A DNA stretch of 64,000 nucleotides from an uncultured Candidatus Saccharibacteria bacterium. Its GTDB lineage: Bacteria; Patescibacteriota; Saccharimonadia; Saccharimonadales; JAGQNJ01. Below the pieces are notes generated by a model that saw only the letters and a list, made by a program, of their open reading frames with translations, was not told the DNA's origin and did no database searches. Numbering within the stretch: position 1 is the first letter of the stretch; each line of letters opens with the position of its first letter. Of this stretch, positions 7,034-55,310 are shown piece after piece. The stretch covers positions 4,132 to 68,131 of the forward strand of contig CAZEED010000005.1 of the NCBI GenBank assembly GCA_964510945.1, read 5' to 3'. Both the position numbers and the translations under genes were made by a program.

Positions 7034-7079
7034 AAAAAAACCGCCCAGGAGTGATTCCCCTGGGCGGTTTTTGTTTTTT
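7034..7079 (-). terminator. Rho-independent terminator, structurally bidirectional
   Basis: Stem ccgcccagg (7041-7049) pairs with cctgggcgg (7059-7067) around a 9-nt loop. An A-run (7034-7040) and a T-run (7068-7079) flank it. It lies downstream of the 169-aa gene on the minus strand. Confidence 0.75.
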
Positions 7080-8062: not shown

Positions 8063-8209
8063 AAAAACCAGCAGAAAATGCTGGCTATCAAGTAATTTTG
8101 TGCATCATATCTGTCCCCTTTCATAGGGCGAGAATTGGCACCGTGGCTATTAAAGCTCGGTTGCCGGCGGTATCATTGGGCTCGATCCCTACTCCGCACT
8201 CGCAATATT
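8063..8209 (-). promoter_or_regulatory. SAM-I (S-box)-like riboswitch with intrinsic terminator
   Basis: The minus-strand RNA reads AAUAUU-GCGAG-UGCGGAGUAGGGAUCGAGCCCAAUGAUACCGCC-GGCAACC-(P3 insert)-GGUGCCAAUUCU-CGCCCUAUGAAAGGGG-ACAGAUAU. This matches the conserved S-box core blocks GGAG.GGGA, GCCC.AUGA, GGCAACC, GGUGCCAAUUC and AGAU.
It is followed by the hairpin AGCCAGCA-UUUUC-UGCUGGUU (8068-8084), a U5 tract, then the RBS. Confidence 0.6.
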
Positions 8210-8244
8210 AGTTGTTAAGTAACCACATTATACCAAATAATTTA

Positions 8245-15105: not shown

Positions 15106-17908
15106 TCCCAGCAAGATAATTGCCAGTGTAGGATTTCTTATTTTTACTTACTTGTTCGGGCGTGCCCTCAGCGACGATATAACCACCGCCCGACCCACCT
15201 TCGGGACCCATATCTATGATGTGGTCAGCCGATTTTATGACATCCAGGTTATGCTCGATGATTATCATGCTGTTACCGGTATCCACCAGCGCATGTAGTA
15301 CTTGTAACAGTTTTTTGACGTCATCCATATGCAGTCCTGTTGTTGGTTCATCTAATATATAAAGCGTACGACCAGTTGGGCGTTTCGAGAGTTCTGTTGC
15401 TAGTTTTACGCGTTGTGCCTCACCACCACTCAGGGTCGTTGCTGGCTGACCTAATGCGATATAGCCTAAGCCCACGTCAACGAGAGTTTGAAGCTTACGG
15501 GCAATCGACGGGATATTAGAAAAGAAGTCTAGCGCTGTTTCGCAGGTCATCTCTAGAACATCACTAATCGTCTTACCCTTGTAGTGTATCTCTAAGGCTT
15601 CTTTGTTATACCTCTTGCCATGGCAAACTTCGCAGGCCACATAAACATCTGGCAAAAAGTGCATCTCAATTTTAATAATTCCATCGCCTGAGCAATTCTC
15701 ACACCTTCCACCTTTTACGTTAAAGCTAAACCTTCCGGGGTTGTAACCGCGAACTTTTGCCTCTGGTACGCTAGCAAATAGCTCCCTAATAGGCGTAAAC
15801 AGTCCAGTATAGGTCGCCGGATTAGAACGTGGAGTACGACCAATTGGCGATTGATCGATGATTATGGCTTTATCTAGGTGTTCTATACCGGTAATGTCAT
15901 CGTGTTTACCCGGTACTGTATTAGCCCGATGCAATCTTGCAGACAATTCTTTAGCTAAAATATCATTGATCAGACTTGATTTCCCCGATCCGGATACACC
16001 ACTGACTACCACCATTTTGCCCAAAGGTATCACGGCGTCAATATTTTGCAAATTATGTTCTTTTGCGCCAATAACAGAGATAAAATTACCATTTCCGGAT
16101 CGTCGTTTTTTTGGTGCATCGACTGATTTTTCACCACGAAGATACTGACCAGTGATACTATTTTTTACTTTCGACACTGCCTCAGGCGTGCCCTCGGCAA
16201 CCACATGACCACCGTGGATCCCAGCACCAGGGCCAATATCTAACAAATAATCTGCAGTCTTTATCGTTTCTTCGTCGTGTTCAACCACGATTACTGAATT
16301 TCCAAGATCACGCAAAGTTTTTAATGTAGTAATCAGTCGATTATTGTCTCTTTGGTGTAGTCCTATTGAGGGCTCATCCAACACATATAAAACACCCATT
16401 AATCCAGAGCCTATCTGAGTAGCTAGGCGAATCCGTTGCGCTTCGCCGCCACTTAATGTTGTAGCGCTACGTGCCAATGTCAGATAGTTAAGCCCGACGT
16501 CTTGTAAGAATTTTAAGCGAGCTTTAATTTCTTTTAATATTTGTTTGGCGATGGTCTGCTCTTTTTCGTCCAAATCAAGATTGTCAAAAAATTTTACACT
16601 ATCATCAATAGAGTTCTCGCAAACATCAATAATAGAAGTGTCGTTAACTGTTATCGCCAAAACCTCGGGCTTCAATCGCTTGCCTTTGCAGGCATGACAA
16701 GGTCGTTCTTGCATAAAACGTTCAATATCACGACGCATAAAATCACTCTCTGTTTCTTTGTGACGCCGTTCTAGATTAGGGATTACTCCTTCATAAGTCG
16801 TATCAAAAGATCGCCCACCGCCTAGAGGTACGGTATATTTTTTATCACCTGTTCCGTATAGCAGTAGGTCTAGATTTTTCTTTGACAACTCTGACGTGGG
16901 GACTTGCAGACTAAAATGATTGTCATCGGCCACGGCTTGCATTTTTTTCATATACCAAGCGTCGGTGCTCACTCGGTTGTACGGCCTTATCGCCCCCTCA
17001 GAAATTGTCAAACGACCATTTGGGATAACTAATTCTGGGTCAACTTCCATGCGTGTACCCAGACCCGTGCAGACCGGACAAGCACCAAATGGCGAGTTAA
17101 AGCTAAAAGTTCTGGGTTCAAGTTCAGGAATCGAAACTTCAGGATGGTCAACACAGGCGTACATCAAGCTATATGAAAAATCCTTGTCGCTATCGGCATC
17201 ATAAATTGTCAATCGGCCATCCGACAAATCCAGCGCTTGCTCTACAGACTGAACTAATCTACCACTGTTATCTTTATTATTGGTAACCCTATCTACCACC
17301 ACTTCAATAGTATGTTTTTTTGCCTTATCCAACTCTGGGAATTCGTCTAAAGCGTACACCACCCCATCAACCCTAACACGCGCAAATCCACCTCGCATGT
17401 ATTGCTCTGGGATATGTTCAAAAGCACCTTTTTTATCAATTACCACTGGCGAGAGGATTATGATTCTAGCATCGCGAGTTTGATTAATAACTTGGTCAAC
17501 AACGCCTTGCGCCGTTTGCCGTGTTACTGGTTTATTGCACACCGGACAATGAGGTATGCCGATTCTAGCATATAGTAATCTCAAGTAATCAAAGATTTCT
17601 GTTACTGTAGCAACTGTTGAGCGTGGGTTGCGACTCGTAGATTTTTGATCAATGCTAATTGCAGGGCTAAGACCGTCAATTTGGTCAACATCAGGTTTTT
17701 CCATCAAACCCAAAAACTGACGAGCGTACGAGCTTAGACTCTCTACATATCGTCTTTGCCCTTCAGCATAAATAGTATCAAAGGCAAGGCTAGACTTCCC
17801 CGAACCTGATAAGCCAGTTATGACTACCAGCTTTTCGCGTGGAATAGTCACACTAATATTTTTTAGATTGTGTTCTCGAGCCCCTTTTACTTCAATATAT
17901 TCACTCAT
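15098..17908 (-). CDS. uvrA: Excinuclease ABC subunit A
   Basis: 936 aa. Two ABC modules ([18 protein letters not shown]; LSGGEAQR twice) and zinc-finger Cys clusters. Confidence 0.95.
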
Positions 17909-18012
17909 TTATTCCAACTTCAACTTCTTAGTCCCCTATTGTATGTCGACGCTGGATTGTATCAGAAAATGAGCATATTTTCCACCCCTATGTGCTAATA
18001 TACAAAGCTGTA

Positions 18013-18834
18013 ATGAAAGTCGCTATTCAGGGGCAAGAAGCCTCATACCATCATCTTGCCGCCAAACAATTCTTTGGCAATGATATCGAAATATTGCCAT
18101 GCGATACTTTTAAGCTTGCTTTTAAAGCGATAGAAGAAAATACCGCCGAAAATGCCGTAATTGCTATAGAAAATTCCCTATACGGTGCCATTAGCCCAGT
18201 CTATGATCTACTACTAAAAAAACGTCTATGGATTAGCGGAGAGGTGTATCTGCGAGTACAACATTGCTTAATAGGAATCGCCGGTTCTGATATTAATAAG
18301 CTTCAAGAAATATATTCTCAAATCATGGCTCTTGCTCAGTGTGAAAATTATCTAGAGAATAACTTCGCTAACGCCAAACATATTGAATACCATGATACGG
18401 TTGCGAGCGTAGAACTAGTCAAAAAATCAGGTGACAAAACAAAAGCCGCGATTGCCAGTGAGGGTGCCGCCAAACTCCATAAAATGGAAATCCTTGATAA
18501 AGGGATAGAAGACAATAAACAAAACTTCACCAGATTCTTAGTTCTTAAAAAAAAGCCAACTAAAGTAGCTAATGCGAACAAAACATCCCTCATTCTGATT
18601 ACTTCGCACCAGCCCGGTTCTTTGTACCGAGCTCTAGGAGTCTTTGATAAATACAAAATCAATCTATCAAAACTTCAATCTAGGCCAATTAAAGATAAAG
18701 CGTGGCAATACATGTTTTATATAGACGTAGAATGCGGGTTGGAAAATACTGAGCTAACTAGTGCGTTGTCAGCTTTAGAAGCCCAGGACTGTGAGACAAT
18801 AGTCCTTGGTAGTTATAAATCAGCCAAAGGTTAA
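18013..18834 (+). CDS. pheA: Prephenate dehydratase
   Basis: PDT domain (MKVAIQG..SYHHLAA, TRFLVL) plus an ACT domain (GSLYRALGVF.., QSRPIK..WQYMFYIDVE). Start moved to ATG 18013. Confidence 0.85.
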   Translation: MKVAIQGQEASYHHLAAKQFFGNDIEILPCDTFKLAFKAIEENTAENAVIAIENSLYGAISPVYDLLLKKRLWISGEVYLRVQHCLIGIAGSDINKLQEIYSQIMALAQCENYLENNFANAKHIEYHDTVASVELVKKSGDKTKAAIASEGAAKLHKMEILDKGIEDNKQNFTRFLVLKKKPTKVANANKTSLILITSHQPGSLYRALGVFDKYKINLSKLQSRPIKDKAWQYMFYIDVECGLENTELTSALSALEAQDCETIVLGSYKSAKG

Positions 18835-38517: not shown

Positions 38518-38763
38518 TCAATGGTTATTCACTTTACCGAGCCCTATACGCATTAATGAGGTACCAGCCAAAGTAACTACAGTGGATGCAATCGCAATTG
38601 GATTATAAATAGCGTCTAGATCAGCCAAGCCCAACATATCGGGCGCTACCAAAAATGCGTCATTAACAGCTAAAGTACCCAAACCAATAATCGACAATGC
38701 CAAACCAGCCTTTCGTAAATTTTCAGACCAACCTGAACGAGGGATTTCTGCGTTTTCTTCCAT
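38518..38763 (-). CDS. Small 2-TM protein (81 aa), paralog of 28549-28830
   Basis: ENLRKAGLALSIIGLGTLAVNDAF aligns with RRIRNIGGIAFGVGMAGVVLLDIF. The second helix is also similar. Confidence 0.5.
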   Translation of the reverse strand: MEENAEIPRSGWSENLRKAGLALSIIGLGTLAVNDAFLVAPDMLGLADLDAIYNPIAIASTVVTLAGTSLMRIGLGKVNNH

Positions 38764-38809
38764 ACGGATAACTACTTAAACATATCTTCTCAGCTAACTC
38801 AACCCAATT

Positions 38810-38840
38810 AAAAAGATCCCGGATAAATCCAGGACCTTTT
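38810..38840 (-). terminator. Rho-independent terminator after the RRM gene (structurally bidirectional)
   Basis: Hairpin gatcccgga/tccaggacc (38815-38836, two mismatches), flanked by A5 and T4. Confidence 0.55.
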
Positions 38841-38868
38841 ATTGCGCTTCTTTCAGATAAATCTGAAA

Positions 38869-39120
38869 TTAGTCGCGAGGGCGGGCTTCGCTAACGTTGA
38901 TTGGTCGGCCGTCAAGCTCTTTACCATTCAACTGGTCGACTGCAGCTTTGGCTTCATCATCTGAACCCATTTCTACAAACCCAAAACCTTTTGATCGATT
39001 AGTGTCTCGGTCAGTTATAACTTTTGCAGATACAACCTTACCAACTGTTTCGAACAACTCTTTAAGCTGATCGTCAGTCACGTTCCAAGACAATGAACCT
39101 ACAAATAGATTAGTTGCCAT
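38869..39120 (-). CDS. RNA-binding protein, single RRM (RNP-1/RNP-2)
   Basis: RNP-2 LFVGSL and RNP-1 KGFGFVEM. AAGGAG RBS. Confidence 0.9.
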   Translation of the reverse strand: MATNLFVGSLSWNVTDDQLKELFETVGKVVSAKVITDRDTNRSKGFGFVEMGSDDEAKAAVDQLNGKELDGRPINVSEARPRD

Positions 39121-39355
39121 TTGAACTCCTTATTAATTTCTAGAGGTAACTTTGGCAACGCCGAGTTAGCTGCTCCTACTAAAAACACATTGTTAATATT
39201 ATTGAACCTAGAACCGAACTAACTCGTTACATTAGCAGCTTTATCTAGTCAGGGTAACTATAACACAGAAATGATTAAAAATAGCAAACTTTTTTCTCTG
39301 TTGAGATCGTTTAATCACGTGGTTTTAAATCGCTTTTGTTTTTGTGACTTAGAAT

Positions 39356-41194
39356 TTAGGTATTTGCCTTAGCGCGACGACGTTTGTTTGGATCTAGTTC
39401 GCTTTTTCTCAGTCGCAAACTTTCTGGTGTGACCTCTAGCAACTCGTCTTTTTCTAAGAAATCAATGCACTGTTCGAGGCTGAGAATTGTTGGCGGTGAT
39501 AGCTGGACTACCCCGTCGCTACTAGAACTTCGCATATTTGTTAAATGCTTGGCCTTACATACATTAATTTCTAAATCATCACTTCTTTTATTGAGACCAA
39601 TTATCTGACCAGCGTAGACTTTTACTGCTCCACCAACAAATAACTCCCCTCGATCTTCAGCATTTTGCAATGAATATGGCGTTGTTACACCAGTCTCAAA
39701 AGCAATTAACACGCCATTTCGCAGTTGCTCGAGTGGTGCGCCTAAAGGTTGATAGCCTGTCACGAGGCTGTTCATGATGATTGTTCCTTTGGTATTCGTC
39801 ATAAGAATGTTGCGGAGTCCAATCAATGCCCGAGTCGGTAGTTCATAAATTAGCTTTGTGACGCCGTTGTTGGTTGCAAACTGCTCCTTTAGTACACTTT
39901 TACGCTTGCCTAGTTCCATTTGTACCGCACCGACATAATCAGCAGGCACCTCGATGATTAACTCTTCTACAGGCTCCTCTGTGACTCCATCGTTATCCCG
40001 AGTAACTACCTGCGGTCGACCAACTTCAAATTCAAAACCTTCTCGGCGCATTGTCTCGATCAGCACGCTCAAGTGTAGCTCTCCGCGCCCTGATATCAAG
40101 AATCCAATGCCTTCTTCTTCAACTCGCAGTCCTACGTTTGTTTCTAGCTCTTTTTTAAGCCGTTCGGCAATTTGTCGATTAGTAGAGAATTTGCTCTCTT
40201 GGCCTTTAAACGGGCTAGTGTTTGGACCCAGATAAATCTTTAACGTCGGCGCTTCAACCTCCAAGACAGGCAATGCCTCAGGTTCCTCAGCATCAGCCAC
40301 AGTTTCGCCAATCTGTGCATCGCCTACCCCAGTTAACTGCACAATATCACCAGCTACACCACCGTCAACCTCAAATTTGCTAACACCGTGACTCATATAG
40401 ACCGTATCAATTTTTGCCCTAACTTGCTTTCCGTCTTTTTTGCAAAGGGTAATTGGATCGCCAGCCTTAACTTTGCCTCTAGTTATACGCCCGATAGCGT
40501 ACTTTCCCTTAAAACTGTCCCAAGATAATGCCGTAACTAACATCTGGAAAGGCTTGTCCGGTTCAGCATGAGGCGCTGGAATATCGTTAATAATCGCTTG
40601 GAAGATTACTTCTAGATCACCCTCGTCTTCAAAATGCGTCGGAGGCTTTGCCCATGCTTTGCCCTCACGGCCAACAGCGTAATAGACTGGATAATGTAGC
40701 TGATCTTCGTGTACGGCCAGTTCTAAAAATAAATCAGCTAATTCGTCCTCAACCTCTTTTAATCTCGATCCAGGTTTATCGATTTTGTTAATAATCACAA
40801 TCGGCTTAAGCTCATTGGCCAGTGCTTTTGATAATACAAACTTAGTCTGGGGCATCGGGCCTTCCTGAGCGTCAACGATCAAAATACAGCCATCGGCCAT
40901 ATTAAGCGTACGTTCTACCTCACCAGAAAAATCGGCGTGTCCAGGGGTATCAATGATATTTATTCGATAATCACCGTGTTGCACAGCTGTCACTTTGGCA
41001 GTAATAGTTATTCCGCGCTCTTTTTCTTGGTCACCACTGTCCATAATCAAATCTTGGCCCATTTCAGCCTGATTATCACGAAAGGTTTGCGATTGCTTTA
41101 AAAGCCCGTCAACAAGGGTAGTTTTGCCATGATCAACATGGGCAATAATGGCGATATTTCGTATTTTAGTAGGGTCTTGTATCTTTGATGTCAT
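39356..41194 (-). CDS. typA: Translational GTPase TypA/BipA
   Basis: AHVDHGKTT, DTPGH, NKID motifs and BipA-type C-terminal domains. Start moved to ATG 41194. Confidence 0.95.
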   Translation of the reverse strand: MTSKIQDPTKIRNIAIIAHVDHGKTTLVDGLLKQSQTFRDNQAEMGQDLIMDSGDQEKERGITITAKVTAVQHGDYRINIIDTPGHADFSGEVERTLNMADGCILIVDAQEGPMPQTKFVLSKALANELKPIVIINKIDKPGSRLKEVEDELADLFLELAVHEDQLHYPVYYAVGREGKAWAKPPTHFEDEGDLEVIFQAIINDIPAPHAEPDKPFQMLVTALSWDSFKGKYAIGRITRGKVKAGDPITLCKKDGKQVRAKIDTVYMSHGVSKFEVDGGVAGDIVQLTGVGDAQIGETVADAEEPEALPVLEVEAPTLKIYLGPNTSPFKGQESKFSTNRQIAERLKKELETNVGLRVEEEGIGFLISGRGELHLSVLIETMRREGFEFEVGRPQVVTRDNDGVTEEPVEELIIEVPADYVGAVQMELGKRKSVLKEQFATNNGVTKLIYELPTRALIGLRNILMTNTKGTIIMNSLVTGYQPLGAPLEQLRNGVLIAFETGVTTPYSLQNAEDRGELFVGGAVKVYAGQIIGLNKRSDDLEINVCKAKHLTNMRSSSSDGVVQLSPPTILSLEQCIDFLEKDELLEVTPESLRLRKSELDPNKRRRAKANT

Positions 41195-45752: not shown

Positions 45753-46140
45753 TGGTGGAGCTGCGGAGAATTGCACTCCGGTCCGCTGGATTATCTTTGT
45801 TAGTCTTCTACAGGCTTAGTCTATTTAAATTTATCTTAGAAGAGTTATATATAAAAAGACAAAACAACAACTCCTCGCATATCTTATGGTTTCTTTGTAA
45901 AACTACAGATAAAAAGTTTTACGCAACCAGATGATATGACACGCTAGCAATGCTATCTGACGTCACTTTGCGCGTGGCTTTAGTTAAACTAAAGCTGGTG
46001 CTAGCTTAGGCATTTGGAAATTTCCAAAAGCTGCAACTAGCTGTTTTTTAACATTTGCAGTTAAAATTGTTGTCTATACGCTGACAAGCGACCTGCTGAT
46101 CTAACTGATAAAGTCCTACGTCGAGCATAATTTCAGCCCC
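45753..46140 (-). ncRNA. ssrA: tmRNA (SsrA)
   Basis: - 5' end GGGGCUGAAAUUAUGCUCGACG.
- 3' end CGGAG-UGCAAUU-CUCCG-CAGCUCC-ACCA.
- Acceptor stem carries a G3:U pair.
- Candidate tag ORF resumes at GCA 46058. Its stop UAA (45986-45984) sits in the loop of hairpin GCUUUAG-UUUAA-CUAAAGC. Confidence 0.93.
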
Positions 46141-46299: not shown

Positions 46300-47082
46300 T
46301 TAAGATTTTTTCTGTAATAGTGAGAACATTCGTAACCACTGTTCAATTGATAATTCTTGCGCACGGGCACTCGAATCAATCCCCAACTCCTCAAAAGCCT
46401 GATTTAGTACCTGCTTATCGTATTTTACTTCTCTCAACAGATTAGAAATAAGCTTTTTTCGCGGTTGATCAAAGGCAGCCTTTACAAGTGTTAAAAAATC
46501 CTCTATTTTATCAACTTCAATTTGTGGGGTTTCCCTCCGTTGTAACACCAAAATTTGCGAGTCAACTTTTGGTGGTGGCTCAAACAAATGCGCCGGCACC
46601 ACCTCCCCTGCCCAGGTCACATAAAAAACCTGCAGGACCACAGCTACAAACGACATTTTGCCCGCCTCAGCACTAGCCCGCTCGGCCACTTCTTTTTGCA
46701 CTAACAGTGAAGCTAAGTCTGGTTTCTTATCAGAATCAATTAATTTTCTGAACAAATTCGCCGTCAGATAATACGGGATATTGGCAACAATCTTAAAGCG
46801 CGGGGCAAGACTGCCAAAATCAAACTTTCTAATATCGCCTTCAATTACCTGCACATTCTTATTACTGGCATATTTAAATAGCAACTGCTGGGCCAAAGTA
46901 TGATCATACTCGAGGGCGGTGATATTCGCCCCAATCGCCACTAACTCATCTGTTAAAAGCCCTGTGCCAGGCCCAATCTCGAGTACATCATCCCCTGCCT
47001 TCACCTCGGCACTCTCAATCATCGCTTGCAAAGAATATTTATCCTTCAGCCAATGCTGCCCTAACTCTTTTCGTTGATTCAT
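46300..47082 (-). CDS. rsmA: 16S rRNA (adenine1518/1519-N6)-dimethyltransferase RsmA/KsgA
   Basis: LGQHWL, SAM motif VLEIGPGTGLLT, NIPY motif. Confidence 0.95.
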   Translation of the reverse strand: MNQRKELGQHWLKDKYSLQAMIESAEVKAGDDVLEIGPGTGLLTDELVAIGANITALEYDHTLAQQLLFKYASNKNVQVIEGDIRKFDFGSLAPRFKIVANIPYYLTANLFRKLIDSDKKPDLASLLVQKEVAERASAEAGKMSFVAVVLQVFYVTWAGEVVPAHLFEPPPKVDSQILVLQRRETPQIEVDKIEDFLTLVKAAFDQPRKKLISNLLREVKYDKQVLNQAFEELGIDSSARAQELSIEQWLRMFSLLQKKS

Positions 47083-47191
47083 TAACTAAATTGTATCAGA
47101 GAATTCATGAGCGAGGTTCTGGGTCTTGCACTCGAGTGCAGTCCTTTGTGCTAGTGTTTCCTCCCCCTCTCAAACACTGAGTGGATTTAAA

Positions 47192-47287
47192 TAGTTTTTG
47201 GTGAATGGATGCCGAGGACTAATCTGATTCCATACTTTAGAATTAATGAATCAGATCGCTTGCGTTCCGCAGGCACACAAAAAACTA
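47192..47287. repeat. 96-nt imperfect-palindromic structured repeat, copy 1
   Basis: 84/96 positions identical to 53797-53892 by hand alignment. It folds into a long hairpin with a conserved 6-nt bulge and a conserved asymmetric internal loop (cgcttgcgt). Confidence 0.7.
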
Positions 47288-47369
47288 TATAAATCTACTT
47301 CATGTGGCTTGAGTTGGGGCGGTACTTTTGCCATACTTTTCTTGCCGGGGAGAAAACTATGAAAAGGGT

Positions 47370-48614
47370 TTACCACCAGCCCTGGGCTTGCCAAGCACTA
47401 TAAGCCCCCTGCCAACTCCCATACCGACCATTAGCATAGCCACTAAAGTGATTTAGCTGACAAACGGGATCAGATTGCCAATTAGGACAAGCCGATATTA
47501 AGCTACCAGCGTCACACTTTTGCCCTAGACCTATGCATCGGTTAGCGCTAACGCTGGCTGGATTCCAGCCGGATTCACGACCGATGATATAGTCAACATA
47601 CTGATACTGTGATGGATCGATACCGGCAGCCTTCATCCAATCTAATTTGCTACCAGTGACTGTACCCCCAGGCAAAGCTAAATCAGTGGCCGAACCTGTG
47701 CCAACTGCAATGATTTTATCAACTGGCTTTTTAGCAACCACGGTCTTTAGCGCCTTTTTCTTTTTTGGATTAGACTTGTCGACTTCGTAAATAACAACTT
47801 TTTTGCCTTTTTCGCCCTCACGCCTAACGGCTGTTTCGCCGGCATCTAGATCAGGATCTTCAACACGCTTTTCTTTAAACGGAATACTCTCTGATTTTGT
47901 AATAATCTTTTTGCCAGGGTACGTTACATACACAACAGTGTTTGGCTTGAGCTTAGTCTTGGCTGGCGGGAATACCGTTATATCATCGCTGTTAAGACCT
48001 TTTTCGGCTATCAGCTCACCAACTGTCTTTGATAGTGTCCGCACGCTATATGTCTGACCGTACAAAACTAAACTAACTGGAATCGAACGCTTTATCACTA
48101 CTTTTTCGGCGATTACGCCTTCTTTAAGTAAATCGTCAGGTACCTTTAAGCGCACATCATCCTCCGGATAAACTTTGACCCCAACTTCTTCGGCAACCGC
48201 TCTGGCAGATTGCTGAGCACTAAGCACAGTTGTAATTTTTTTGCCGTCAATTACGGTCACCGGTCTGGCCCGATAAACATTAACCGTAAAATCATCTTCT
48301 AAAATTTGAGTACTGGCTTTTGGCTCGACCTCGTCGCCTTCGTTTAACGTTACGTTCATTCGCTTTAGCAAGTCACCGACAGTACGTGCTCTAGTAGGCA
48401 AAGTTTGCTTTTGATCATCAACGTAAACATTCACAATACGCTGGTCACCTGGCGCCACAGTGGTAGAGTTAAAACTTATAAATACGCCAATGGTCACAAA
48501 AAACAACACCATAAAGGTAATAACCGGTATCACGAGCGGATGCTTATGGATACGCATGATTTTTCGTCGCTTTTGCTTGGAAATTATCGGTTTTTTGGAA
48601 TTTTTTCTCAACAT
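47370..48614 (-). CDS. RpfB/YabE-architecture cell-wall protein: TM + 3x DUF348 + G5 + C-terminal lytic-transglycosylase-like domain
   Basis: Repeated DUF348-like ~45-aa units. G5 region (ETAVRREGEKGKKVVIYEV). C-terminal IIGRESGWNP..IGLGQ..RYGSW..GWW. Conserved synteny directly upstream of ksgA. Confidence 0.8.
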   Translation of the reverse strand: MLRKNSKKPIISKQKRRKIMRIHKHPLVIPVITFMVLFFVTIGVFISFNSTTVAPGDQRIVNVYVDDQKQTLPTRARTVGDLLKRMNVTLNEGDEVEPKASTQILEDDFTVNVYRARPVTVIDGKKITTVLSAQQSARAVAEEVGVKVYPEDDVRLKVPDDLLKEGVIAEKVVIKRSIPVSLVLYGQTYSVRTLSKTVGELIAEKGLNSDDITVFPPAKTKLKPNTVVYVTYPGKKIITKSESIPFKEKRVEDPDLDAGETAVRREGEKGKKVVIYEVDKSNPKKKKALKTVVAKKPVDKIIAVGTGSATDLALPGGTVTGSKLDWMKAAGIDPSQYQYVDYIIGRESGWNPASVSANRCIGLGQKCDAGSLISACPNWQSDPVCQLNHFSGYANGRYGSWQGAYSAWQAQGWW

Positions 48615-48726: not shown

Positions 48727-51700
48727 TTATGATTCGATTTTTTGCAGTGGCGCCAAGCTAATATCGAGTTGTTTTGTGCCCCGCGACCCAAAACTAATCG
48801 TGGCAATATCGCCATCCATATGCACCACAGTGCCCTTACCAAATACCGAATGATTAATCCCATCGCCAATCTCTAGATCGGGAACATAACGAGGCTCAGT
48901 TGATACTGCCAAAGCTTCTTTTGGCCGAGGGGCATACTCACTAGCAAACGATCCACCAAAAACTGTTGGTTGATGGGTGTCTGCTAGACGCGAATCAACA
49001 TCAGCCAAGAATCTACTAGGAGGATTATGAAGCGTTCCGCCATAAAGCATGCGACTTGAAGCATACAGCAGATACAGTTCTTGCTTGGCCCGCGTCATGC
49101 CTACATAGCAAAGCCGACGTTCTTCCTCCATCTCGCTTGCATCATATAAAGCACGGGAATGAGGAAAAACTGTTTCTTCCATACCGCTCATAAAAACTAC
49201 TGGAAACTCAAGTCCTTTAGCACCGTGCAAAGTCATCAAGGTTACGCTATCCTTATGGGTATCATTATTATCACTACTCGTCAGCAGTGATACTTCCTCC
49301 AGGAAACCTTCTAGCCCAAGCTCTTCATACTCTGAAGCAACCGATAATAGCTCTTTGACGTTTTCTTGTCTTGCTTCTGACTGCATAGTGCCGTCATCTA
49401 GATAGGTAAGGTAATCTAGTCGCCTAACTAGCGAATCAACAAGACCAGACACATTACTATCGCCCATAACCTCTCGCATTGAACGTACAATATCTGCTAG
49501 TTCTAGCAAACCTTTACGGGCTTTTGGGGTGATATCGTTACATCGATCAGCATTTTGAAGAGCTTCGTCGAGGGTTATAGCATTCTCCGTTCGCCAAGCG
49601 TTAAAGTTAATTAACGACTTGGCGCCAACGCTCCGCGCCGGCACATTCACAATCCTCTCAAAACTCATCACATCCTCTGGCTGATAGATTAATCTTAAAT
49701 ATGCCATAATGTCCTTAATTTCTTTACGATCGTAAAACCTAACACCACCAACTATCCGATACGGAATGCCATAATGAACAAAAACTTCCTCCAGCGACCG
49801 ACTTTGGGCATTCGTCCGATAAAGTACGGCAAAATCTTTGTAAGTTCTTAGCCCACCATCTACTTGATTACGAATAGTCCTAACAATTGCCTCGCCTTCA
49901 TTGCGTTCAGAACCAACCGGAATAATCTGCACCGGCAGTCCATCGCCAAGATCAGTCCATAGTTTTTTAGTAGAACGATGAGCATTTTTTGAGATAACGC
50001 TATGTGCCGCATCCAAGATATGTTTTGTGCTTCGGTAGTTTTGCTCAAGTTTTATAACTTGGCAATTTTTATAATCTTTTTCGAAGTTCAAAATATTCTT
50101 AAAATCCGCCCCACGCCACGAATAAATCGAATTATGAACTACTATCCCTGATGCTATATAGTTATGGACTTTCTCGACATCAATATCATAAACATAACCT
50201 TTATAATCTTCTTTAACTACAGATAAAACCTGCTCTTCCGTAACTGCTTGATTTTCTAGCACTGGGACCAACATACCAGGATGTATCTGCCCAGCTGGTA
50301 GGTAAATAAACTTATTGCCGGTTAAAAATGCATACTTGCTAACCTGCAATTCGAAATTATTAGATTCTTGAATTCTTTCTACGATTTTTTCTATCTTACC
50401 GTAGTCAAGATTGTGAATCTCAACCCTAAAAGTTCCTGACTTACCATTTCTAACTTTGTAGCCTAGCTCTTCAAATAACTTTAAATCCTGCTTATCGGTT
50501 GTGTTTACAGAGATTCTACTAGCTGACCAAGGGCTTTGATTTGATATTCTTTTGTCGCCAAAAAGTACCACATTAACATTAATCCGTTTGCTACCGTTCC
50601 TAGTTGTTGCTTGTGGAAAAAAATGCGGATAATCAAAATTAATTCCCTGCTTTGCCATCAATTCTGAGGCTCTTTGTTCAGTATCTATCTCTGCGTATAA
50701 GGCATCGATGTACTTTTGATCAAACTGCATAAAGCGGTTTTTATAAGCATGAAATACTAACATTGGTATCCCAAACTTATAAGAATATAGGGCTTCTTTG
50801 TACATAGCCTCTTGCCGGTTTTTGCATACCTCTAGAATCCACATTCTGTCTGCGCGTTCTTGATTTGCCCTAATCCTTAGGCCAATATCGTATTTTTTAC
50901 CATCAAATCGCGTACCTTTAGCAACTCCGATTCTATATCCTTTGCCCTGCGCGTACATCAAATATACAAAATAAGAATCTGTTTTATCCCACCTAGAAAA
51001 TAGTATATGGTTGGGTGTACATGTCAGTTCTTTGCCTGAAATAGTTTTTATACGAACAACCTCGCCTTCGTAAGCAAACTTTTTAGTCCTCGTGACTTTA
51101 AAAAACTCAGTTTTTCCATAGCCGCTAGCTGACTTTACTAGTGCTGTATTAGTCATGTTTTCTATTTTTTGAATACCATTAGCTGTTTCAATATGAGTAC
51201 CCTCAACCAGACATTGCCAATCGTCCCCGACAACTGCAATATTATTATTTTCGTTGGTTAATAGCTTGATCAGTTTGTATTGGGCGGCATTGGTATCCTG
51301 ATACTCATCGATCATCACATAGCGAAACTGTTGTTGCCATTTTGTACGGATTTGTTCATTACCCGATAACATTTGCACAGTTCTTGAAATCAAATCATCA
51401 AAGTCCAAGGCCATGGCATCCTTTAGGGTTTTTTGATATAACGGATAGATGCGCGCCGCTTCTTTTTGGGTTGGACTACTAGCAGTAGAGGTTAGCTCAT
51501 CCGGCGAGATTAACTCGTTTTTTGCACTCGAGATAATACTCGATAATTTGCGGGCCGGAAAGCTTTTTTCGTCTATAGATAGTTCTTTAGATATCTTTTT
51601 TACGCAGGCCGTTCTATCAAGTTCGTCAAAGATTACAAAGTTCTTGGGGATGCCAATTTGATCACCGTCTTGACGCAATAAACGCACACAAATACTATGA

Positions 51701-51978
51701 AAAGTTCCCATAAATGGCATAAATGATCTGTCGTCAGATCGATGACCCAATAACTGCGCTACCCGTTCGCGCATCTCGCCGGCAGCTTTATTAGTAAAAG
51801 TAACGGCTAAGATGTTGTAGGGGGTTGCCAAGTTTTTATCGATAATATAGGCGATACGATGGGTCAAAGTTTTTGTTTTGCCACTTCCAGCGCCAGCAAG
51901 AATTAACAGTGGACCCTCGGTTGACTCTACCGCCCGCTGCTGTTCGCTATTTAGATCTTTTAAAAATTCCTCAACCAC
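48727..51978 (-). CDS. pcrA: ATP-dependent DNA helicase PcrA/UvrD, interrupted by an in-frame intein
   Basis: Motif I AGAGSGKT, motif II DEYQDTN. Motif III is split as VVGDDWQ / SIYSWRGAD. Motifs IV-VI and the C-terminal Tudor-like tail are present. The exteins sum to 722 aa. Confidence 0.95.
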   Translation of the reverse strand: MVEEFLKDLNSEQQRAVESTEGPLLILAGAGSGKTKTLTHRIAYIIDKNLATPYNILAVTFTNKAAGEMRERVAQLLGHRSDDRSFMPFMGTFHSICVRLLRQDGDQIGIPKNFVIFDELDRTACVKKISKELSIDEKSFPARKLSSIISSAKNELISPDELTSTASSPTQKEAARIYPLYQKTLKDAMALDFDDLISRTVQMLSGNEQIRTKWQQQFRYVMIDEYQDTNAAQYKLIKLLTNENNNIAVVGDDWQCLVEGTHIETANGIQKIENMTNTALVKSASGYGKTEFFKVTRTKKFAYEGEVVRIKTISGKELTCTPNHILFSRWDKTDSYFVYLMYAQGKGYRIGVAKGTRFDGKKYDIGLRIRANQERADRMWILEVCKNRQEAMYKEALYSYKFGIPMLVFHAYKNRFMQFDQKYIDALYAEIDTEQRASELMAKQGINFDYPHFFPQATTRNGSKRINVNVVLFGDKRISNQSPWSASRISVNTTDKQDLKLFEELGYKVRNGKSGTFRVEIHNLDYGKIEKIVERIQESNNFELQVSKYAFLTGNKFIYLPAGQIHPGMLVPVLENQAVTEEQVLSVVKEDYKGYVYDIDVEKVHNYIASGIVVHNSIYSWRGADFKNILNFEKDYKNCQVIKLEQNYRSTKHILDAAHSVISKNAHRSTKKLWTDLGDGLPVQIIPVGSERNEGEAIVRTIRNQVDGGLRTYKDFAVLYRTNAQSRSLEEVFVHYGIPYRIVGGVRFYDRKEIKDIMAYLRLIYQPEDVMSFERIVNVPARSVGAKSLINFNAWRTENAITLDEALQNADRCNDITPKARKGLLELADIVRSMREVMGDSNVSGLVDSLVRRLDYLTYLDDGTMQSEARQENVKELLSVASEYEELGLEGFLEEVSLLTSSDNNDTHKDSVTLMTLHGAKGLEFPVVFMSGMEETVFPHSRALYDASEMEEERRLCYVGMTRAKQELYLLYASSRMLYGGTLHNPPSRFLADVDSRLADTHQPTVFGGSFASEYAPRPKEALAVSTEPRYVPDLEIGDGINHSVFGKGTVVHMDGDIATISFGSRGTKQLDISLAPLQKIES
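50131..51213 (-). mobile_element. Class 1 intein (361 aa) in helicase motif III
   Basis: - Cys1 (TGT, 51213-51211) follows GDDWQ.
- Block A CLVEGTHIET, block B TPNHILF, blocks F/G YVYDIDVEKVHNYIASGIVVHN.
- Terminal HN (50136-50131) is followed by the Ser+1 extein residue.
- A ~230-aa central insert has no intact LAGLIDADG or HNH motif visible. Confidence 0.9.
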
Positions 51979-52023: not shown

Positions 52024-52845
52024 TTAGTTTGAGATAACGTCAGTTAGAGGCTCGACACCAATATCCACCATGCCGGCATCGACAGCAAAATTTAGCGCTA
52101 CTAATCCCCCAACGATCAACACTACTAATAAGACAATCAATATCCTTATGTTGCGTTTACGACTTAACTGACCAATTGGAACATTATAAGTCTTGGCTTC
52201 AATCAATTCTTCGACATGCTTCGATCTAACTTCAAATTCTTTTTCTTCTTGTTTTTGTTTCTTACTTTCCGCTGCCTGCTCGGCCATTTCATTAACTATA
52301 CCGCCATCATCATATTCTTCTTTTGGTTCTTCTTTGATAGATTCTTTTTCTGCAGGTTGTTCGTCAGTATGCTTGGTTTCGGGTTCAGTTGACTTTATTT
52401 TTTCTTCAACTTTGTCGCTATCGCTTGGTTTTTCTGTATCTTTATTTTCTTTTGTGCTCTCATCTACTTTTTCGTCAGTATCATCAGAAATATTATCAAT
52501 AAACTTGCTGTCTGTGACGCGTTCAGCATCATTAGTCAAATCGTCCGCCTCAGGCTCATCTTTTTCGCCTTCATCTGGATTGGTTTCAGACGGAATGATC
52601 TTTATATGACTTTCGCTCGGTGGCTTGAGATTAGAGGCTAGCTTGTCGGTCATTTCTATTTTCGATATATTAGTCAAGTTGTCTTCGTCTGTACTTTGGC
52701 TTGGACTGATATCTTTTATCATTCCTGAAGGCCTAACTATCTCTGGTTTTTCTATTTTTAATTCGGGCATTTTACTTTTTTCAGTTGTGGTAATATCCAT
52801 GGATTTGTTTGAGCTGACATTTAAATTATTTGCTTTTGGGCTCAT
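52024..52845 (-). CDS. Hypothetical acidic/Lys-rich protein with C-terminal TM anchor
   Basis: 273 aa. Long E/K/D/S-rich low-complexity region, then ILIVLLVVLIVGGLVALNFAV. Abuts the tpiA stop. Confidence 0.6.
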   Translation of the reverse strand: MSPKANNLNVSSNKSMDITTTEKSKMPELKIEKPEIVRPSGMIKDISPSQSTDEDNLTNISKIEMTDKLASNLKPPSESHIKIIPSETNPDEGEKDEPEADDLTNDAERVTDSKFIDNISDDTDEKVDESTKENKDTEKPSDSDKVEEKIKSTEPETKHTDEQPAEKESIKEEPKEEYDDGGIVNEMAEQAAESKKQKQEEKEFEVRSKHVEELIEAKTYNVPIGQLSRKRNIRILIVLLVVLIVGGLVALNFAVDAGMVDIGVEPLTDVISN

Positions 52846-53633
52846 TATTTTTCCTCGACAATTTCTGTTAATGATCGATAGGCAGATTCTACTATTTCTG
52901 AGAACTTATGATAATTAAGGCTGGCTCCGCCTACTAATACTCCATCGCAACCATCAATATCCAAATACCCACGAGCTGTATGTTCATCTACGCTCCCACC
53001 AAATAACACTCTAACTCTATCGGCAGTTCGTTTGCCATACAAATCCCCGACTTGCTTACGAATATAGTCAAAGGCTTTTTTGATATCAAATGGCTTGGCT
53101 AGTTGACCTTCAAATGTACTAATTGCCCAAACTGGTTCATAAGCAATTACTATCTCTGATACTTCTTTAGCTGTCAGGTTGGCTAACGCTGTCGATAACT
53201 GATCGTGTAATACCTGATGCGTTTCGCCAGCCCGTCTTTCGGTCTTACTTTCACCCACACAAAGAATTGGTGTAATGTTGTTGCGGACGCTAGCGGCAAC
53301 TTTGTCTCTAATTAAATCCAGATTCTCACCAAAATGAATTCGACGCTCACTATGACCAATTATTACGTAATGAACAAGCTCTTGTATCTGAGTAAAAGAT
53401 ACTTCACCCGTAAATGCTCCCTCGTCTTTAGGATGGGCATTTTGGGCAGCTAGTCTAAACTTTCGTCGATCAATCTGTAGACTTAGCGGTTGAAGAACAA
53501 GCATAGTCGGGGCCAAGACAACCTCGATATCACGATATATCTTAATTCGTTCATGTAAACGATGCAGTAGCAAACTAGACTGACTTGTATTCAGATTCAT
53601 CTTCCAGTTACCGACAATTAATTTACGTTTCAT
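52845..53633 (-). CDS. tpiA: Triose-phosphate isomerase
   Basis: VGNWKMN, GHSERR, YEPVWAI, GGS motifs. Confidence 0.95.
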   Translation of the reverse strand: MKRKLIVGNWKMNLNTSQSSLLLHRLHERIKIYRDIEVVLAPTMLVLQPLSLQIDRRKFRLAAQNAHPKDEGAFTGEVSFTQIQELVHYVIIGHSERRIHFGENLDLIRDKVAASVRNNITPILCVGESKTERRAGETHQVLHDQLSTALANLTAKEVSEIVIAYEPVWAISTFEGQLAKPFDIKKAFDYIRKQVGDLYGKRTADRVRVLFGGSVDEHTARGYLDIDGCDGVLVGGASLNYHKFSEIVESAYRSLTEIVEEK

Positions 53634-53796
53634 TTGTGCTTATGTTTACCTTTGTTACAGTTTAACATATTGGAGCTTCTGCTTATACGATTTGTTATCC
53701 TACGGACGTCTAACGGCATCCGGCTTGTCCTTAGTAACTTTTTCGGTGTTGTTGTGGTTTTTAGTCCAAGCTCTGAAAAACAGAGGGTTTTTTTAT

Positions 53797-53892
53797 TAGT
53801 TTTTATCGAATGAATGCCGAGGACTAATCTGATTCCTTACTCTTAAATTAATAAATCAGATCGCTTGCGTTCCGCAGGCACGATAAAAACTA
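53797..53892. repeat. 96-nt imperfect-palindromic structured repeat, copy 2
   Basis: Outer stem tagtttttatcg/cgataaaaacta is a perfect 12 bp. The core is identical to copy 1. Located between pgk and tpiA. Confidence 0.7.
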
Positions 53893-54020
53893 ATCATAAT
53901 ACCCATATTGTTTTTCATCTGCTTGGTGGATTTTACTCAACTTTTACCACTAAAAGTTGATAGTACGCGAACATTTGTTACTCCACTGGCCAGCGGATAG
54001 CCGGCGCAAAAGTAAAAGAT

Positions 54021-55310
54021 CTACTTATCTTGTAGAACTTCAATACCTGGCAATTTTTTACCGGCAAGTAAATCTAGTGTTGCCCCACCACCCGTCGACA
54101 CATAATTAAAGCATCTAACTAGATTGCGTTCTTCAATATATGCCGAAGTGTCACCACCGCCAATCAGACTATATGGCCGATTACCAAATTGTCCAGAGAG
54201 CGCATCTAGGATTAGCTCTGTGCCGTGCGCAAACGGACCAATTGGACCGTTAACTGATGGCGTTTCGGTCACCCCCATAAGTCCATTCCATATAACCGTT
54301 TTGGCGTATTGGATACTACCAGCTATAAAAGCCCCAGAGAATGGCCCAATGTCTAAGATCAACTCATCAGCACGAATCTTTCTGGTACTGCTACGAGGCT
54401 GCCTTGGGTAACTCTCTATATCAGCGATAACATGCGCATCAAAATCTACGATCCTAGTCTTTGCGTGTTTGTCCACACTGTCAGCGACAACAAAGTCTTG
54501 TGGTAGATAAAAGACAAAGGGACGTTTTTTAGCCTCTGCTTCGGCTAGGTCTAATATATCTTTCGCAGTATCAATTTCGGCTTCATCAACTAAACTCTTA
54601 CCAACTTCAACACCCTTAGCTTTCAACAATGTATTAGCCATCGCTCCACCAATAGCCAGTAAATCAGCGGTTTTTATAAATACTTTTAAGACATCAATCT
54701 TATCGGCAATCTTTGCCCCGCCAACTATTGCGGTTAACGGTCTGACTGGATTCAAGACAACATCTGTAATCGCCTTATATTCTTTTTCAATTAACAGTCC
54801 GGCAACACTAGGCACAAAACTTGTTATCGCAACCGTTGAAGCATGTGAGCGATGAGCATTACCAAAGGCATCTTGCACAAAATAATCAACTCCACTCGCT
54901 AACTGTTTAGCAAAAGTTTTGTCGTTCGCTTCTTCTTGTGAGTAAAAACGTGTGTTCTCGAGTAGTAAAATTTGTTTGTTGTGTAGTAATTTTTTGGCAT
55001 CCTCAACTTTTGGGCCCACGCAATCATCAACAAACACAACATCTCGTTTAATGAGTTTTTCTAGAGATTCGGCTACTTTTTTTAAACTTAGATTAGGGAC
55101 AGCCTTCACATCCGGCCGACCACGATGGCTAATCAAGATAATCTTGCAGTTTTGATCTATTAGGTATTGCAAAGTAGGGAGCGACATTCGAATACGATAA
55201 TCATCTAGTACTTCGCCGTGCTCACCAGCCGGAACATTATAATCGACGCTCACCATCACCGTCTTATTATGAATGGGTACATCTTTAACAGTTTTTTTAG
55301 CTAAGATCAT
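54021..55310 (-). CDS. pgk: Phosphoglycerate kinase
   Basis: SHRGRP and GGGDT/STGGGA motifs. 429 aa. Confidence 0.95.
   Translation of the reverse strand: MILAKKTVKDVPIHNKTVMVSVDYNVPAGEHGEVLDDYRIRMSLPTLQYLIDQNCKIILISHRGRPDVKAVPNLSLKKVAESLEKLIKRDVVFVDDCVGPKVEDAKKLLHNKQILLLENTRFYSQEEANDKTFAKQLASGVDYFVQDAFGNAHRSHASTVAITSFVPSVAGLLIEKEYKAITDVVLNPVRPLTAIVGGAKIADKIDVLKVFIKTADLLAIGGAMANTLLKAKGVEVGKSLVDEAEIDTAKDILDLAEAEAKKRPFVFYLPQDFVVADSVDKHAKTRIVDFDAHVIADIESYPRQPRSSTRKIRADELILDIGPFSGAFIAGSIQYAKTVIWNGLMGVTETPSVNGPIGPFAHGTELILDALSGQFGNRPYSLIGGGDTSAYIEERNLVRCFNYVSTGGGATLDLLAGKKLPGIEVLQDK

Follow-up and report, generated by a model that had tools for sequence, protein, structure and literature searches.

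Why does one structured, non-coding sequence stand in two intergenic gaps of a 64,000-nt stretch of DNA from an uncultured Candidatus Saccharibacteria bacterium? The genomes of Saccharibacteria and of other bacteria of the candidate phyla radiation (CPR) are about 1 Mb in size and hold little spare DNA, and to our knowledge almost nothing has been established on the non-coding RNA biology of CPR bacteria. Here, we follow the two sequences, at 47192-47287 (copy 1) and 53797-53892 (copy 2) of this stretch (the window), through their homologues in related genomes. We put at about even the chance that they are members of a family of interspersed structured repeats, apparently not described before and similar to the REP, ERIC and BOX repeats, which is carried by some Saccharibacteria and possibly has terminator or insulator activity.

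The two 96-nt sequences are equal in length and identical at 84 of 96 positions, a recount that agrees with the preliminary description of this DNA. The 12 differences fall in the outer stem (core positions 9-11 and 86-88), the bulge (17), the loop (41, 46, 48 and 49) and at position 57. Pair 10:87 is G-C in copy 1 and T-A in copy 2, pair 11:86 is T-A and C-G, respectively, pair 9:88 goes from G.A to A-T, and pair 39:57 is C-G in copy 1 and C.A in copy 2; the two compensatory pairs and the C.A mismatch had been read correctly before, as checked by alignment. Core strings of 22 and 28 nt occur only at these two sites in the window and were matched in none of 100 shuffles, and the 100-nt cores fold with z-scores of -4.75 and -4.99. 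The observation of two structured copies is confirmed and is not a matter of chance.

Base pairing extends far beyond the 96 nt, into sequence where the ungapped identity between the two copies is about 30%. The 96-nt stretches are only the conserved cores of two hairpin-shaped elements of ~220-250 nt, so that the length first given holds for the core and not for the full element, in which pairing runs on and whose true ends lie 40-120 nt further out. As a whole, copy 1 (~47148-47366, plus strand) fills the gap between ksgA and a G5/DUF348 gene, and its flanks align with those of locus L013 and other homologues. Copy 2 (~53766-54010, plus strand) was delimited by alignment with orthologous loci and lies in the gap between tpiA and pgk, its 3' hairpins ending ~10 nt short of the pgk stop codon. 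The folds have energies of -72.1 kcal/mol (z = -5.25) for copy 1 (47143-47366) and -75.4 kcal/mol (z = -5.44) for copy 2 (53760-54020). All the genes adjoining the two copies are on the minus strand and were labelled by a Pfam scan of window proteins that covered 10 open reading frames (ORFs): ksgA (46300-47082) and the G5/DUF348 gene (47370-48614) flank copy 1, and tpiA (52845-53633) and pgk (54021-55310) flank copy 2.

Homologues were sought in a first scan with the exact 19-mer CGCTTGCGTTCCGCAGGCA against one genome per species. The 19 stretches retrieved comprised seven true copies and 12 unrelated high-GC chance matches. All seven true copies are from metagenome-assembled genomes (MAGs) of Saccharibacteria/Saccharimonadales or of unclassified 'bacterium' entries (CPR); they also carry the left core GCCGAGGAC, and their inner hairpins and outer stems differ in sequence and stay complementary. 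Covariance models were built from the true 19-mer matches (R1) and for a shorter subtype (R2), and were used together with a 3'-module pattern; extra Saccharibacteria DNA was drawn from around homologues of tpiA, whose product in the window shares 92-93% identity with proteins encoded in Candidatus Saccharibacteria MAGs, and of nrdR. The E-values of these home-made models are rough. A model search of related genomes had been proposed in the preliminary description; here the two models and the pattern together returned ~35-40 copies in ~14 Saccharibacteria MAGs or contigs, among them two in the 64 kb of the window, three in 21 kb of L198, four in 8 kb of L013 and five each in 20 kb of L209 and of L210. 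Densities run from two copies in 64 kb up to five in 20 kb (up to one per 4 kb), and no copy was found in L203, L205, L206 and L208, four other Saccharibacteria sampled over ~80 kb in all.

At least five subtypes can be told apart by their junction or right half, namely A, B, C, the short subtype S and a variant common to L106:1039 and L211, and different subtypes adjoin one another within one genome. In a metagenome scan with a degenerate GC-rich pattern, most of the matches listed were chance matches from high-GC contigs, and only L106 and L122 were genuine among them. Rfam 15 gave no match for either copy at the gathering threshold or at E <= 10, and none for full-length homologues from L209, in keeping with the earlier remark that the motif was not recognised. 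There was no blastn match in the phage and plasmid collections; in IMG/VR the 19-mer had no match and a gapped core pattern had 58, all of them chance. Full-text searches of the literature on structured RNAs or repeats of Saccharibacteria or Patescibacteria found nothing describing this element.

The alignments of the homologues bear on whether the fold itself is maintained. In an 11-sequence MAFFT-based alignment, 83% of the cells were paired, compared to 37-42% in slid controls. The 27-sequence alignment had 87.9% of its cells paired, compared to 36-44% with partners slid by 1-3 columns, and 234 of its cells had changes in both partners, where shuffling gave a mean of 78; neither the observed pairing nor the covariation score was reached in any of 500 shuffles. 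Both-side changes were found at 26 of 33 pairs in this alignment. By helix, 15 of the 16 pairs in the P2 columns (the outer stem) covary across 27 homologues, and 7 of 8 pairs of the inner hairpin P3 change on both sides, with 96% of cells paired. The stem of a hairpin in the 3' module covaries as well (UAC/GUA, UCC/GGA, AAC/GUU). Alignments derived from covariance models are biased in favour of the structure that was modelled; RNAalifold and the counts based on MAFFT concur with them. Helices that stay paired through this many double changes argue clearly for a single-stranded fold maintained by selection.

Two folds competed for the centre of the element. The hand-drawn structure of the preliminary description (outer stem, 6-nt bulge, UGCC/GGCA stem, asymmetric CGCUUGCG loop, 9-bp inner stem and AU-rich loop) is backed by the covariation among homologues. 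RNAfold proposed instead three hairpins with a helix P4 (GCUUGCG-UUC-CGCAGGC), which is invariant in type A, broken in the copies with UUCC/GGAA and absent from subtypes B, C and S, all of which back P2a/P2b. The UGCC/GGCA stem (P2a) with its asymmetric loop was preferred because its variants covary: UGCC/GGCA, UUCC/GGAA (three copies), GCC/GGC, GGC/GCC and AAU/AUU. In subtype B, P2a/P2b forms a continuous 8-bp helix (GCGGAAAG/CUUUCCGC, GCGGUAAG/CUUACCGC, GCAAUGAG/CUUAUUGC and GCAGUGAG/CUCAUUGC), and an independent run of RNAalifold on the short subtype predicted the same P2a/P2b helix. On these alignments P2a is the decisive helix; P4 is kept as a possible alternative conformer.

Members of the family are ~150-300 nt long and share one design. 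A long imperfect hairpin (P1 and P2, 40-60 bp) is capped by a one-sided RAAUCAW bulge, above which stands a short P2a/P2b helix, usually broken by a GA/RCA internal loop; beyond it lies a junction with a 9-10-bp P3 hairpin and a CGCUUGCG mini-hairpin. On the 3' side of the plus strand follow a U-tract, a UACUUUUG...CAAAAGUA hairpin and often a third, GC-rich hairpin. The plus-strand consensus is UGYAGCY-N-CCAGCMUAAAG-(A-rich)CCGAUG-[P2 arm]-RAAUCAW bulge-[P2a]-GA-[P2b GGAC]-YA-[P3 hairpin] for the 5' half and CGCUUGCG-[P2b' UUCC]-RCA-[P2a']-[P2 arm']-CAUCG-U-rich-[P1']-GGGGYUUUUGS-UACUUUUG..CAAAAGUA-SGCUGGGU-GGGCAGGCAUCGCCC for the 3' half. The stretch UUUUG-N-UACUUUU...AAAAGUA is the best conserved across 21 copies of all subtypes.

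All parts of copy 1 are given here on the plus strand. The long hairpin has its 5' arm (P1 CCUCCCC and P2) at 47160-47203, which folds against the 3' arm at 47276-47321. The alignments place the one-sided bulge, here AAUGGA, at 47204-47209 and next to it UGCC-GA-GGAC (47210-47219), in which the P2a strand UGCC pairs with GGCA at 47272-47275, the P2b strand GGA pairs with UCC at 47266-47268 and GA forms the internal loop. The P3 hairpin AUCUGAUUC/GAAUCAGAU (47222-47256) has a 17-nt AU-rich loop. The CGCUUGCG junction mini-hairpin and, after it, the 3' strands of P2b and P2a (UUCC-GCA-GGCA) occupy 47257-47275, a 19-mer invariant among type A copies; the mini-hairpin is enlarged to CGCUC-UUUA-GAGCG in the copy L209:9698. 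The 3' module (47322-47360) consists of a U-tract (47326-47329, within GGUACUUUUGCC) and the hairpin AUACUUUUC...GAAAACUAU (47333-47360). The core of copy 2, also on the plus strand, is the top match of model R1 (107.9 bits), with the bulge at 53809-53814, UGCC-GA-GGAC at 53815-53824, P3 at 53827-53861, CGCUUGCG at 53862-53869 and UUCC-GCA-GGCA at 53870-53880; its 3' module has a U-tract at 53931-53934 and the hairpin AACUUUUACCACUAAAAGUU at 53939-53958.

Further pairings may exist. In full-length copies of L209, L210 and L006 (e.g. L209 14250-14560), a 5' GCAGCC perfectly complements a 3' GGCUGC and a 5' CCAGCC perfectly complements a 3' GGCUGG; these two pairings would cross one another, which suggests a pseudoknot or alternative pairings. 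A separate observation concerns the 3' module, whose signature UUUUG-N1-4-UACUUUUG..CAAAAGUA also occurs in 46 viral stretches of IMG/VR (L214-L259). These fall into ~10 independent groups with a GC content of 0.27-0.66, and one of the stretches lies between terminase and portal genes (L237); none of the 46 has an element core (R1) or a covering Rfam family.

If the fold is conserved, are the positions of the copies conserved as well? The adjoining genes differ from locus to locus (RNR/IleRS, hsdM, helicases, VanY, nrdR, TspO and others), and presence/absence polymorphism occurs at three orthologous sites: the pgk-tpi, G5-ksgA and nrdR-downstream spacers. The pgk-tpi spacer is 387 nt long in the window, with a type A copy. 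In relatives whose TpiA identity is 92% and 87%, it measures 259 and 231 nt, respectively, and holds an S-type copy in the same orientation (L198 and L201 carry an intact short-subtype copy at this site), and only 21-25 nt in relatives at 77% TpiA identity. The G5-ksgA spacer is 3 nt long in L205. Downstream of nrdR, two copies abut 5'-to-5' in L209 and L210, and the spacer is 63 nt in L212. Because orthologous sites are empty in more distant relatives or hold another subtype in close ones, copies have been gained and exchanged; judged from these spacers, they are not ancestral cis-elements of the pgk-tpi or G5-ksgA operons.

The pgk-tpi spacer of the window also contains the left-arm remnant of a short-subtype element (GGCAUCCGGCUUGUCC..., 53715-53757, plus strand) directly 5' of copy 2, recognised in the spacer and short-subtype alignments. 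Moreover, ~110 nt upstream of tpiA (53634-53760) are near-identical in the window, L198 (9920-10000) and L201, the rest of the spacer being far less conserved; the stretch could be a promoter or leader of tpiA, or a piece of the 5' flank of the element. Pairs of elements in opposite orientation stand side by side at L209 10397-10908, L015 6408-6722 and L198 15262-15664, the first of which abuts 5'-to-5' with zero spacer.

Such dispersal invites a comparison with transposable elements. One explanation is a MITE (a miniature transposable element with inverted repeats) of the IS630/Tc1-mariner type, inserted with a TA target-site duplication, and an imperfect palindrome found between genes in several copies has the general look of one. 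However, the 96 nt are directly flanked by AA/TA in one case and AT/AT in the other, and the TA taken for a duplication lies inside the P2 stem. No terminal inverted repeats or target duplication were found at the true element ends, UGYAGCY and GGGCAGGCAUCGCCC or a terminal hairpin not being inverted repeats of each other; the centre and not the termini is best conserved, and the arms differ between copies. The Pfam labels of ~205 kb of Saccharibacteria loci (L198-L213, a set of loci rather than whole genomes, with copies in L198/L199, L201, L209, L210 and L212) include no transposase, and hence neither a DDE enzyme nor the cognate IS630/Tc1-like one for which the preliminary description had proposed a search. 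A MITE of this type is scarcely credible, and of the REP/MITE-like identity once suggested only the broad sense stands: a multi-copy, dispersed, intergenic element with presence/absence polymorphism.

A different kind of mobility would make the element the RNA component or the end, in non-autonomous form, of a mobile element that is RNA-guided or depends on hairpins, such as an IS200/IS605 omega RNA or PATE, an IS110 bridge RNA or a retroelement. Consistent with this are the multiple copies without terminal repeats or target duplications, the strand-specific single-stranded structure, the sharp 5' and 3' boundaries with unrelated sequence beyond, and the occurrence of several copies in defence or variable gene neighbourhoods. 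One copy in L209 (16265-16370, minus strand) lies 543 nt from a gene (16913-18232, plus strand) for a 439-aa reverse transcriptase (RVT_1); Rfam detects no group II intron RNA at this locus. The explanation is highly improbable, however, as the reverse transcriptase is found at one locus only, the same ~205 kb of Pfam labels hold no TnpA, TnpB, IscB, IS110 or integrase domain, and neither HEARO nor group II introns were matched in Rfam.

Which strand is the functional one? The preliminary description had favoured a minus-strand RNA co-transcribed with the flanking genes, on the strength of a single C.A/G.U pair. Across many copies the wobble pairs favour the plus strand: viewed from it, G.U outnumbers A.C by 34:19 in the 27-sequence alignment (A7), by 13:5 in the short-subtype alignment (A6) and by 45:28 in independent arm alignments, and the core helices of several subtypes hold U.G pairs, which would read A.C from the opposite strand. 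In every aligned copy, the closing stem is followed on the plus strand by a run of U4-5, after a hairpin far larger than those of canonical terminators. The minus strand also has a U-rich run after P2 and the long hairpin (e.g. ...CCCUCUGUUUUUCAG in copy 2), and the full elements have z-scores of about -5.3 on either strand, their reverse complements folding equally well. Given a modest wobble bias and a U-run on the reverse strand too, the plus strand is favoured as the functional one, not proven; in the window it runs antisense to both gene pairs, pgk/tpiA and G5 gene/ksgA.

The orientation of 34 copies relative to their neighbours was tallied, with the codes aa, ss, as and sa (a, antisense; s, sense to the element; first letter, 5'-side gene; second letter, 3'-side gene). 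Fourteen are antisense to both neighbours, five are sense to both, eight are in divergent and six in convergent spacers. A co-oriented downstream gene is present for only 13 of the 34, and 21 have their 3' end facing the 3' end of the neighbouring gene. Copies thus occur in both orientations to their neighbours, a second point on which the minus-strand interpretation did not hold.

A version of that interpretation nevertheless deserves to be weighed, in which the element acts in cis on the minus-strand mRNAs of pgk-tpiA and of the G5 gene-ksgA as a processing or stability signal, e.g. a site for RNase III, of which long perfect hairpins are substrates. Folding is equally good on the two strands, the minus strand has the U-rich run after the long hairpin just noted, and 14 of the 19 copies between co-directional genes have the orientation that it calls for. 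Yet the wobble bias and the core-helix U.G pairs indicate the other strand, 13 of 34 downstream genes share the strand of the element, five copies are sense between co-directional genes, the adjoining genes are functionally unrelated, and the ancestral pgk-tpi and G5-ksgA junctions are without the element. We regard such a signal as improbable.

Plus-strand polarity would also suit a family of independently transcribed small RNA (sRNA) genes, whose products might be trans regulators, protein-sequestering RNAs or ribonucleoprotein (RNP) scaffolds, in which case the bulge, helix and junction would offer a platform for binding, and the RNA's own 3' end would be made up of the U-tract and hairpins on that side. 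The U-tract between hairpins presumably resembles an Sm/Hfq-type site. The asymmetric core and the 3' module are kept across genus-level divergence while the stems covary, the wobbles prefer the plus strand, and the 3'-end-to-3'-end arrangement of 21 of 34 copies is that of a separate convergent unit. Against this, no conserved promoter is found upstream of the 5' boundary (UGYAGCY), where two copies can abut 5'-to-5' without a spacer. Up to one copy per 4 kb is far above known families of sibling sRNAs, the ~80 kb from four other Saccharibacteria has no copy, and the subtype is swapped at the same site in close relatives. Separate sRNA genes are unlikely on this balance.

Several other identities were considered. 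A riboswitch or cis-regulatory leader does not agree with the 13 of 34 copies that have a co-oriented downstream gene, nor with neighbouring genes that are unrelated. Integron attC sites were rejected as the ends lack R''/R' boxes (RYYYAAC...GTTRRRY), copies lie between housekeeping genes (pgk, tpiA) and no integrase was seen. Omega RNA of IS200/IS605 (IscB/TnpB) and IS110 bridge RNA found no support, such a Pfam domain being absent beside the copies in the Pfam-labelled loci. No ribozyme family of Rfam was matched by either copy or by the L209 homologues. Likenesses to SRP/6S/RNase P RNA, T-box, hammerhead and k-turn were dropped, as they showed no sequence or structure match or an inconsistent context. 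As for promoters, reading UACUUUUG as a Bacteroidetes-type -7 element (TAnnTTTG) was rejected for this organism, with 11 intergenic occurrences observed and 8.7 expected (TATAAT: 16 and 5.3), and a scan for a sigma-70 promoter upstream of the element gave no convincing match: copy 2 has a single 9/12 match there, and shuffles give as many.

Among described systems, the family falls into the broad ERIC/BOX/Correia-like kind, being a non-coding imperfect palindrome with many dispersed intergenic copies in both orientations. ERIC/IRU, Correia (CREE) and pneumococcal BOX/RUP repeats likewise measure 100-300 bp, occur between genes in tens to hundreds of copies in either orientation, form long hairpins in transcripts, are modular (BOX has boxes A, B and C) and are polymorphic for insertion among relatives; repeats of this type have been reported to influence termination, processing and stability. 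Here, in contrast, the termini are not the conserved part and have neither inverted repeats nor a TA duplication; the conserved centre is an asymmetric bulge, helix and junction, the arms vary within one genome and remain complementary, a non-palindromic 3' module (U-tract and hairpins) is attached, and the host is a CPR lineage.

REP/BIME and REPIN repeats, with their RAYT (Y1) transposases, are similarly extragenic hairpin repeats with strand-specific single-stranded structure and no terminal repeats or target duplications, and REPs too occur singly or as abutting inverted pairs. REPs are, however, 20-40-nt GC-rich palindromes, uniform within a genome, whereas the present element is 5-10 times longer, with a three-way junction and varying arms. 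No RAYT (Y1_Tnp) domain was found among the Pfam-labelled loci, a search below genome-wide scale. HEARO/omega RNAs share the size of ~300 nt, strong covariation, several copies per genome, mobile-like behaviour and the frequent lack of a protein gene, but no Rfam HEARO match was obtained and no IscB, TnpB or HNH gene lies beside any copy examined. Bidirectional intrinsic terminators, finally, have the same hairpin base with an A-tract upstream and a U-tract downstream, between gene ends; the hairpin here is one of 100-200 nt with a conserved irregular core, not of 5-15 bp.

Taken as a family of interspersed repeats, the element would spread non-autonomously, a trans-acting factor recognising the conserved bulge and helix core in the manner of REP/REPIN, ERIC, BOX and Correia repeats. 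Once inserted, its very long hairpin between an A-tract and a U-tract would serve as transcriptional punctuation, that is, as a terminator or insulator and an RNA-stabilising structure, and selection would then remove most sense insertions within operons. Such a role would account for the excess of antisense copies inside co-directional gene pairs (14 against 5).

A number of points weigh against this reading. Mobility is read solely from presence/absence and subtype replacement, as the analysis turned up neither a mobilising enzyme nor terminal inverted repeats nor a target duplication. Terminator or insulator activity is deduced from the geometry of hairpin and U-tract, and the window contains an ordinary bidirectional intrinsic terminator as well (7036-7073, AAAAAAACCGCCCAGG...CCUGGGCGGUUUUUGUUUUUU, in a 459-nt gap), to which R1 and R2 give weak matches only because it is a hairpin; the organism thus makes use of ordinary short terminators too. 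The wobble bias is modest (p ~0.05 in the largest single set) and was partly measured on alignments made with plus-strand models, thermodynamics gives no choice of strand with z-scores equal on both, and either RNA or single-stranded DNA may be the folded form. True copy numbers are extrapolations from genome fragments, and the orientation tally counts some orthologous copies separately. Lastly, one would sooner expect an asymmetric, deeply conserved core, joined to modular domains on its 5' and 3' sides, in a functional RNA than in a selfish palindrome.

This last point leads to a tentative second reading, in which Saccharibacteria possess in it a new class of functional RNA, large and present in many copies, for example a ribozyme, a guide or scaffold RNA of an unrecognised mobile or defence system, or an RNP platform. 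The RAAUCAW bulge, the GA/RCA helix, the junction and the UUUUG-UACUUUUG module may in that case be functional sites and not relics of a palindrome. In some lineages the element fills whole spacers, up to once per 4 kb, its fold is evidently under selection, and it separates gene pairs that used to lie close together, pgk-tpiA among them; it must accordingly have an effect on how operons are built and how genomes evolve in these organisms. A mobile structured repeat would provide a new means of typing strains and of asking how selfish DNA is tolerated in reduced genomes, a functional RNA would join the small number of large RNA classes that only CPR bacteria have, and a covariance model of the element would in either case improve the annotation of many MAGs.

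Other features of the window were noted in passing. A full-length tmRNA (45753-46140, minus strand; Rfam, 96.6 bits) lies ~1 kb from copy 1, and ARAGORN reported no tmRNA and no tRNA anywhere in the 64 kb. A SAM (S-box) riboswitch is found at 8104-8211 (minus strand; 49.3 bits, Rfam gathering level). The 828 nt of 38528-39356 contain no ORF of >=90 aa and no Rfam match better than E = 0.13. Inside the PcrA/UvrD helicase gene (48727-51978, minus strand), a weak sub-threshold Rfam match to n00280, 'C. difficile sRNA included into helicase gene' (49056-49155, minus strand; 33 bits, E = 0.023), probably mirrors conserved helicase codons because of its location within the pcrA coding sequence. The 1083-aa product of this gene includes an intein (Intein_splicing domain); in the close relatives L198 and L201 the protein has 722 aa and no intein, and in L206 it has 1087 aa with one.

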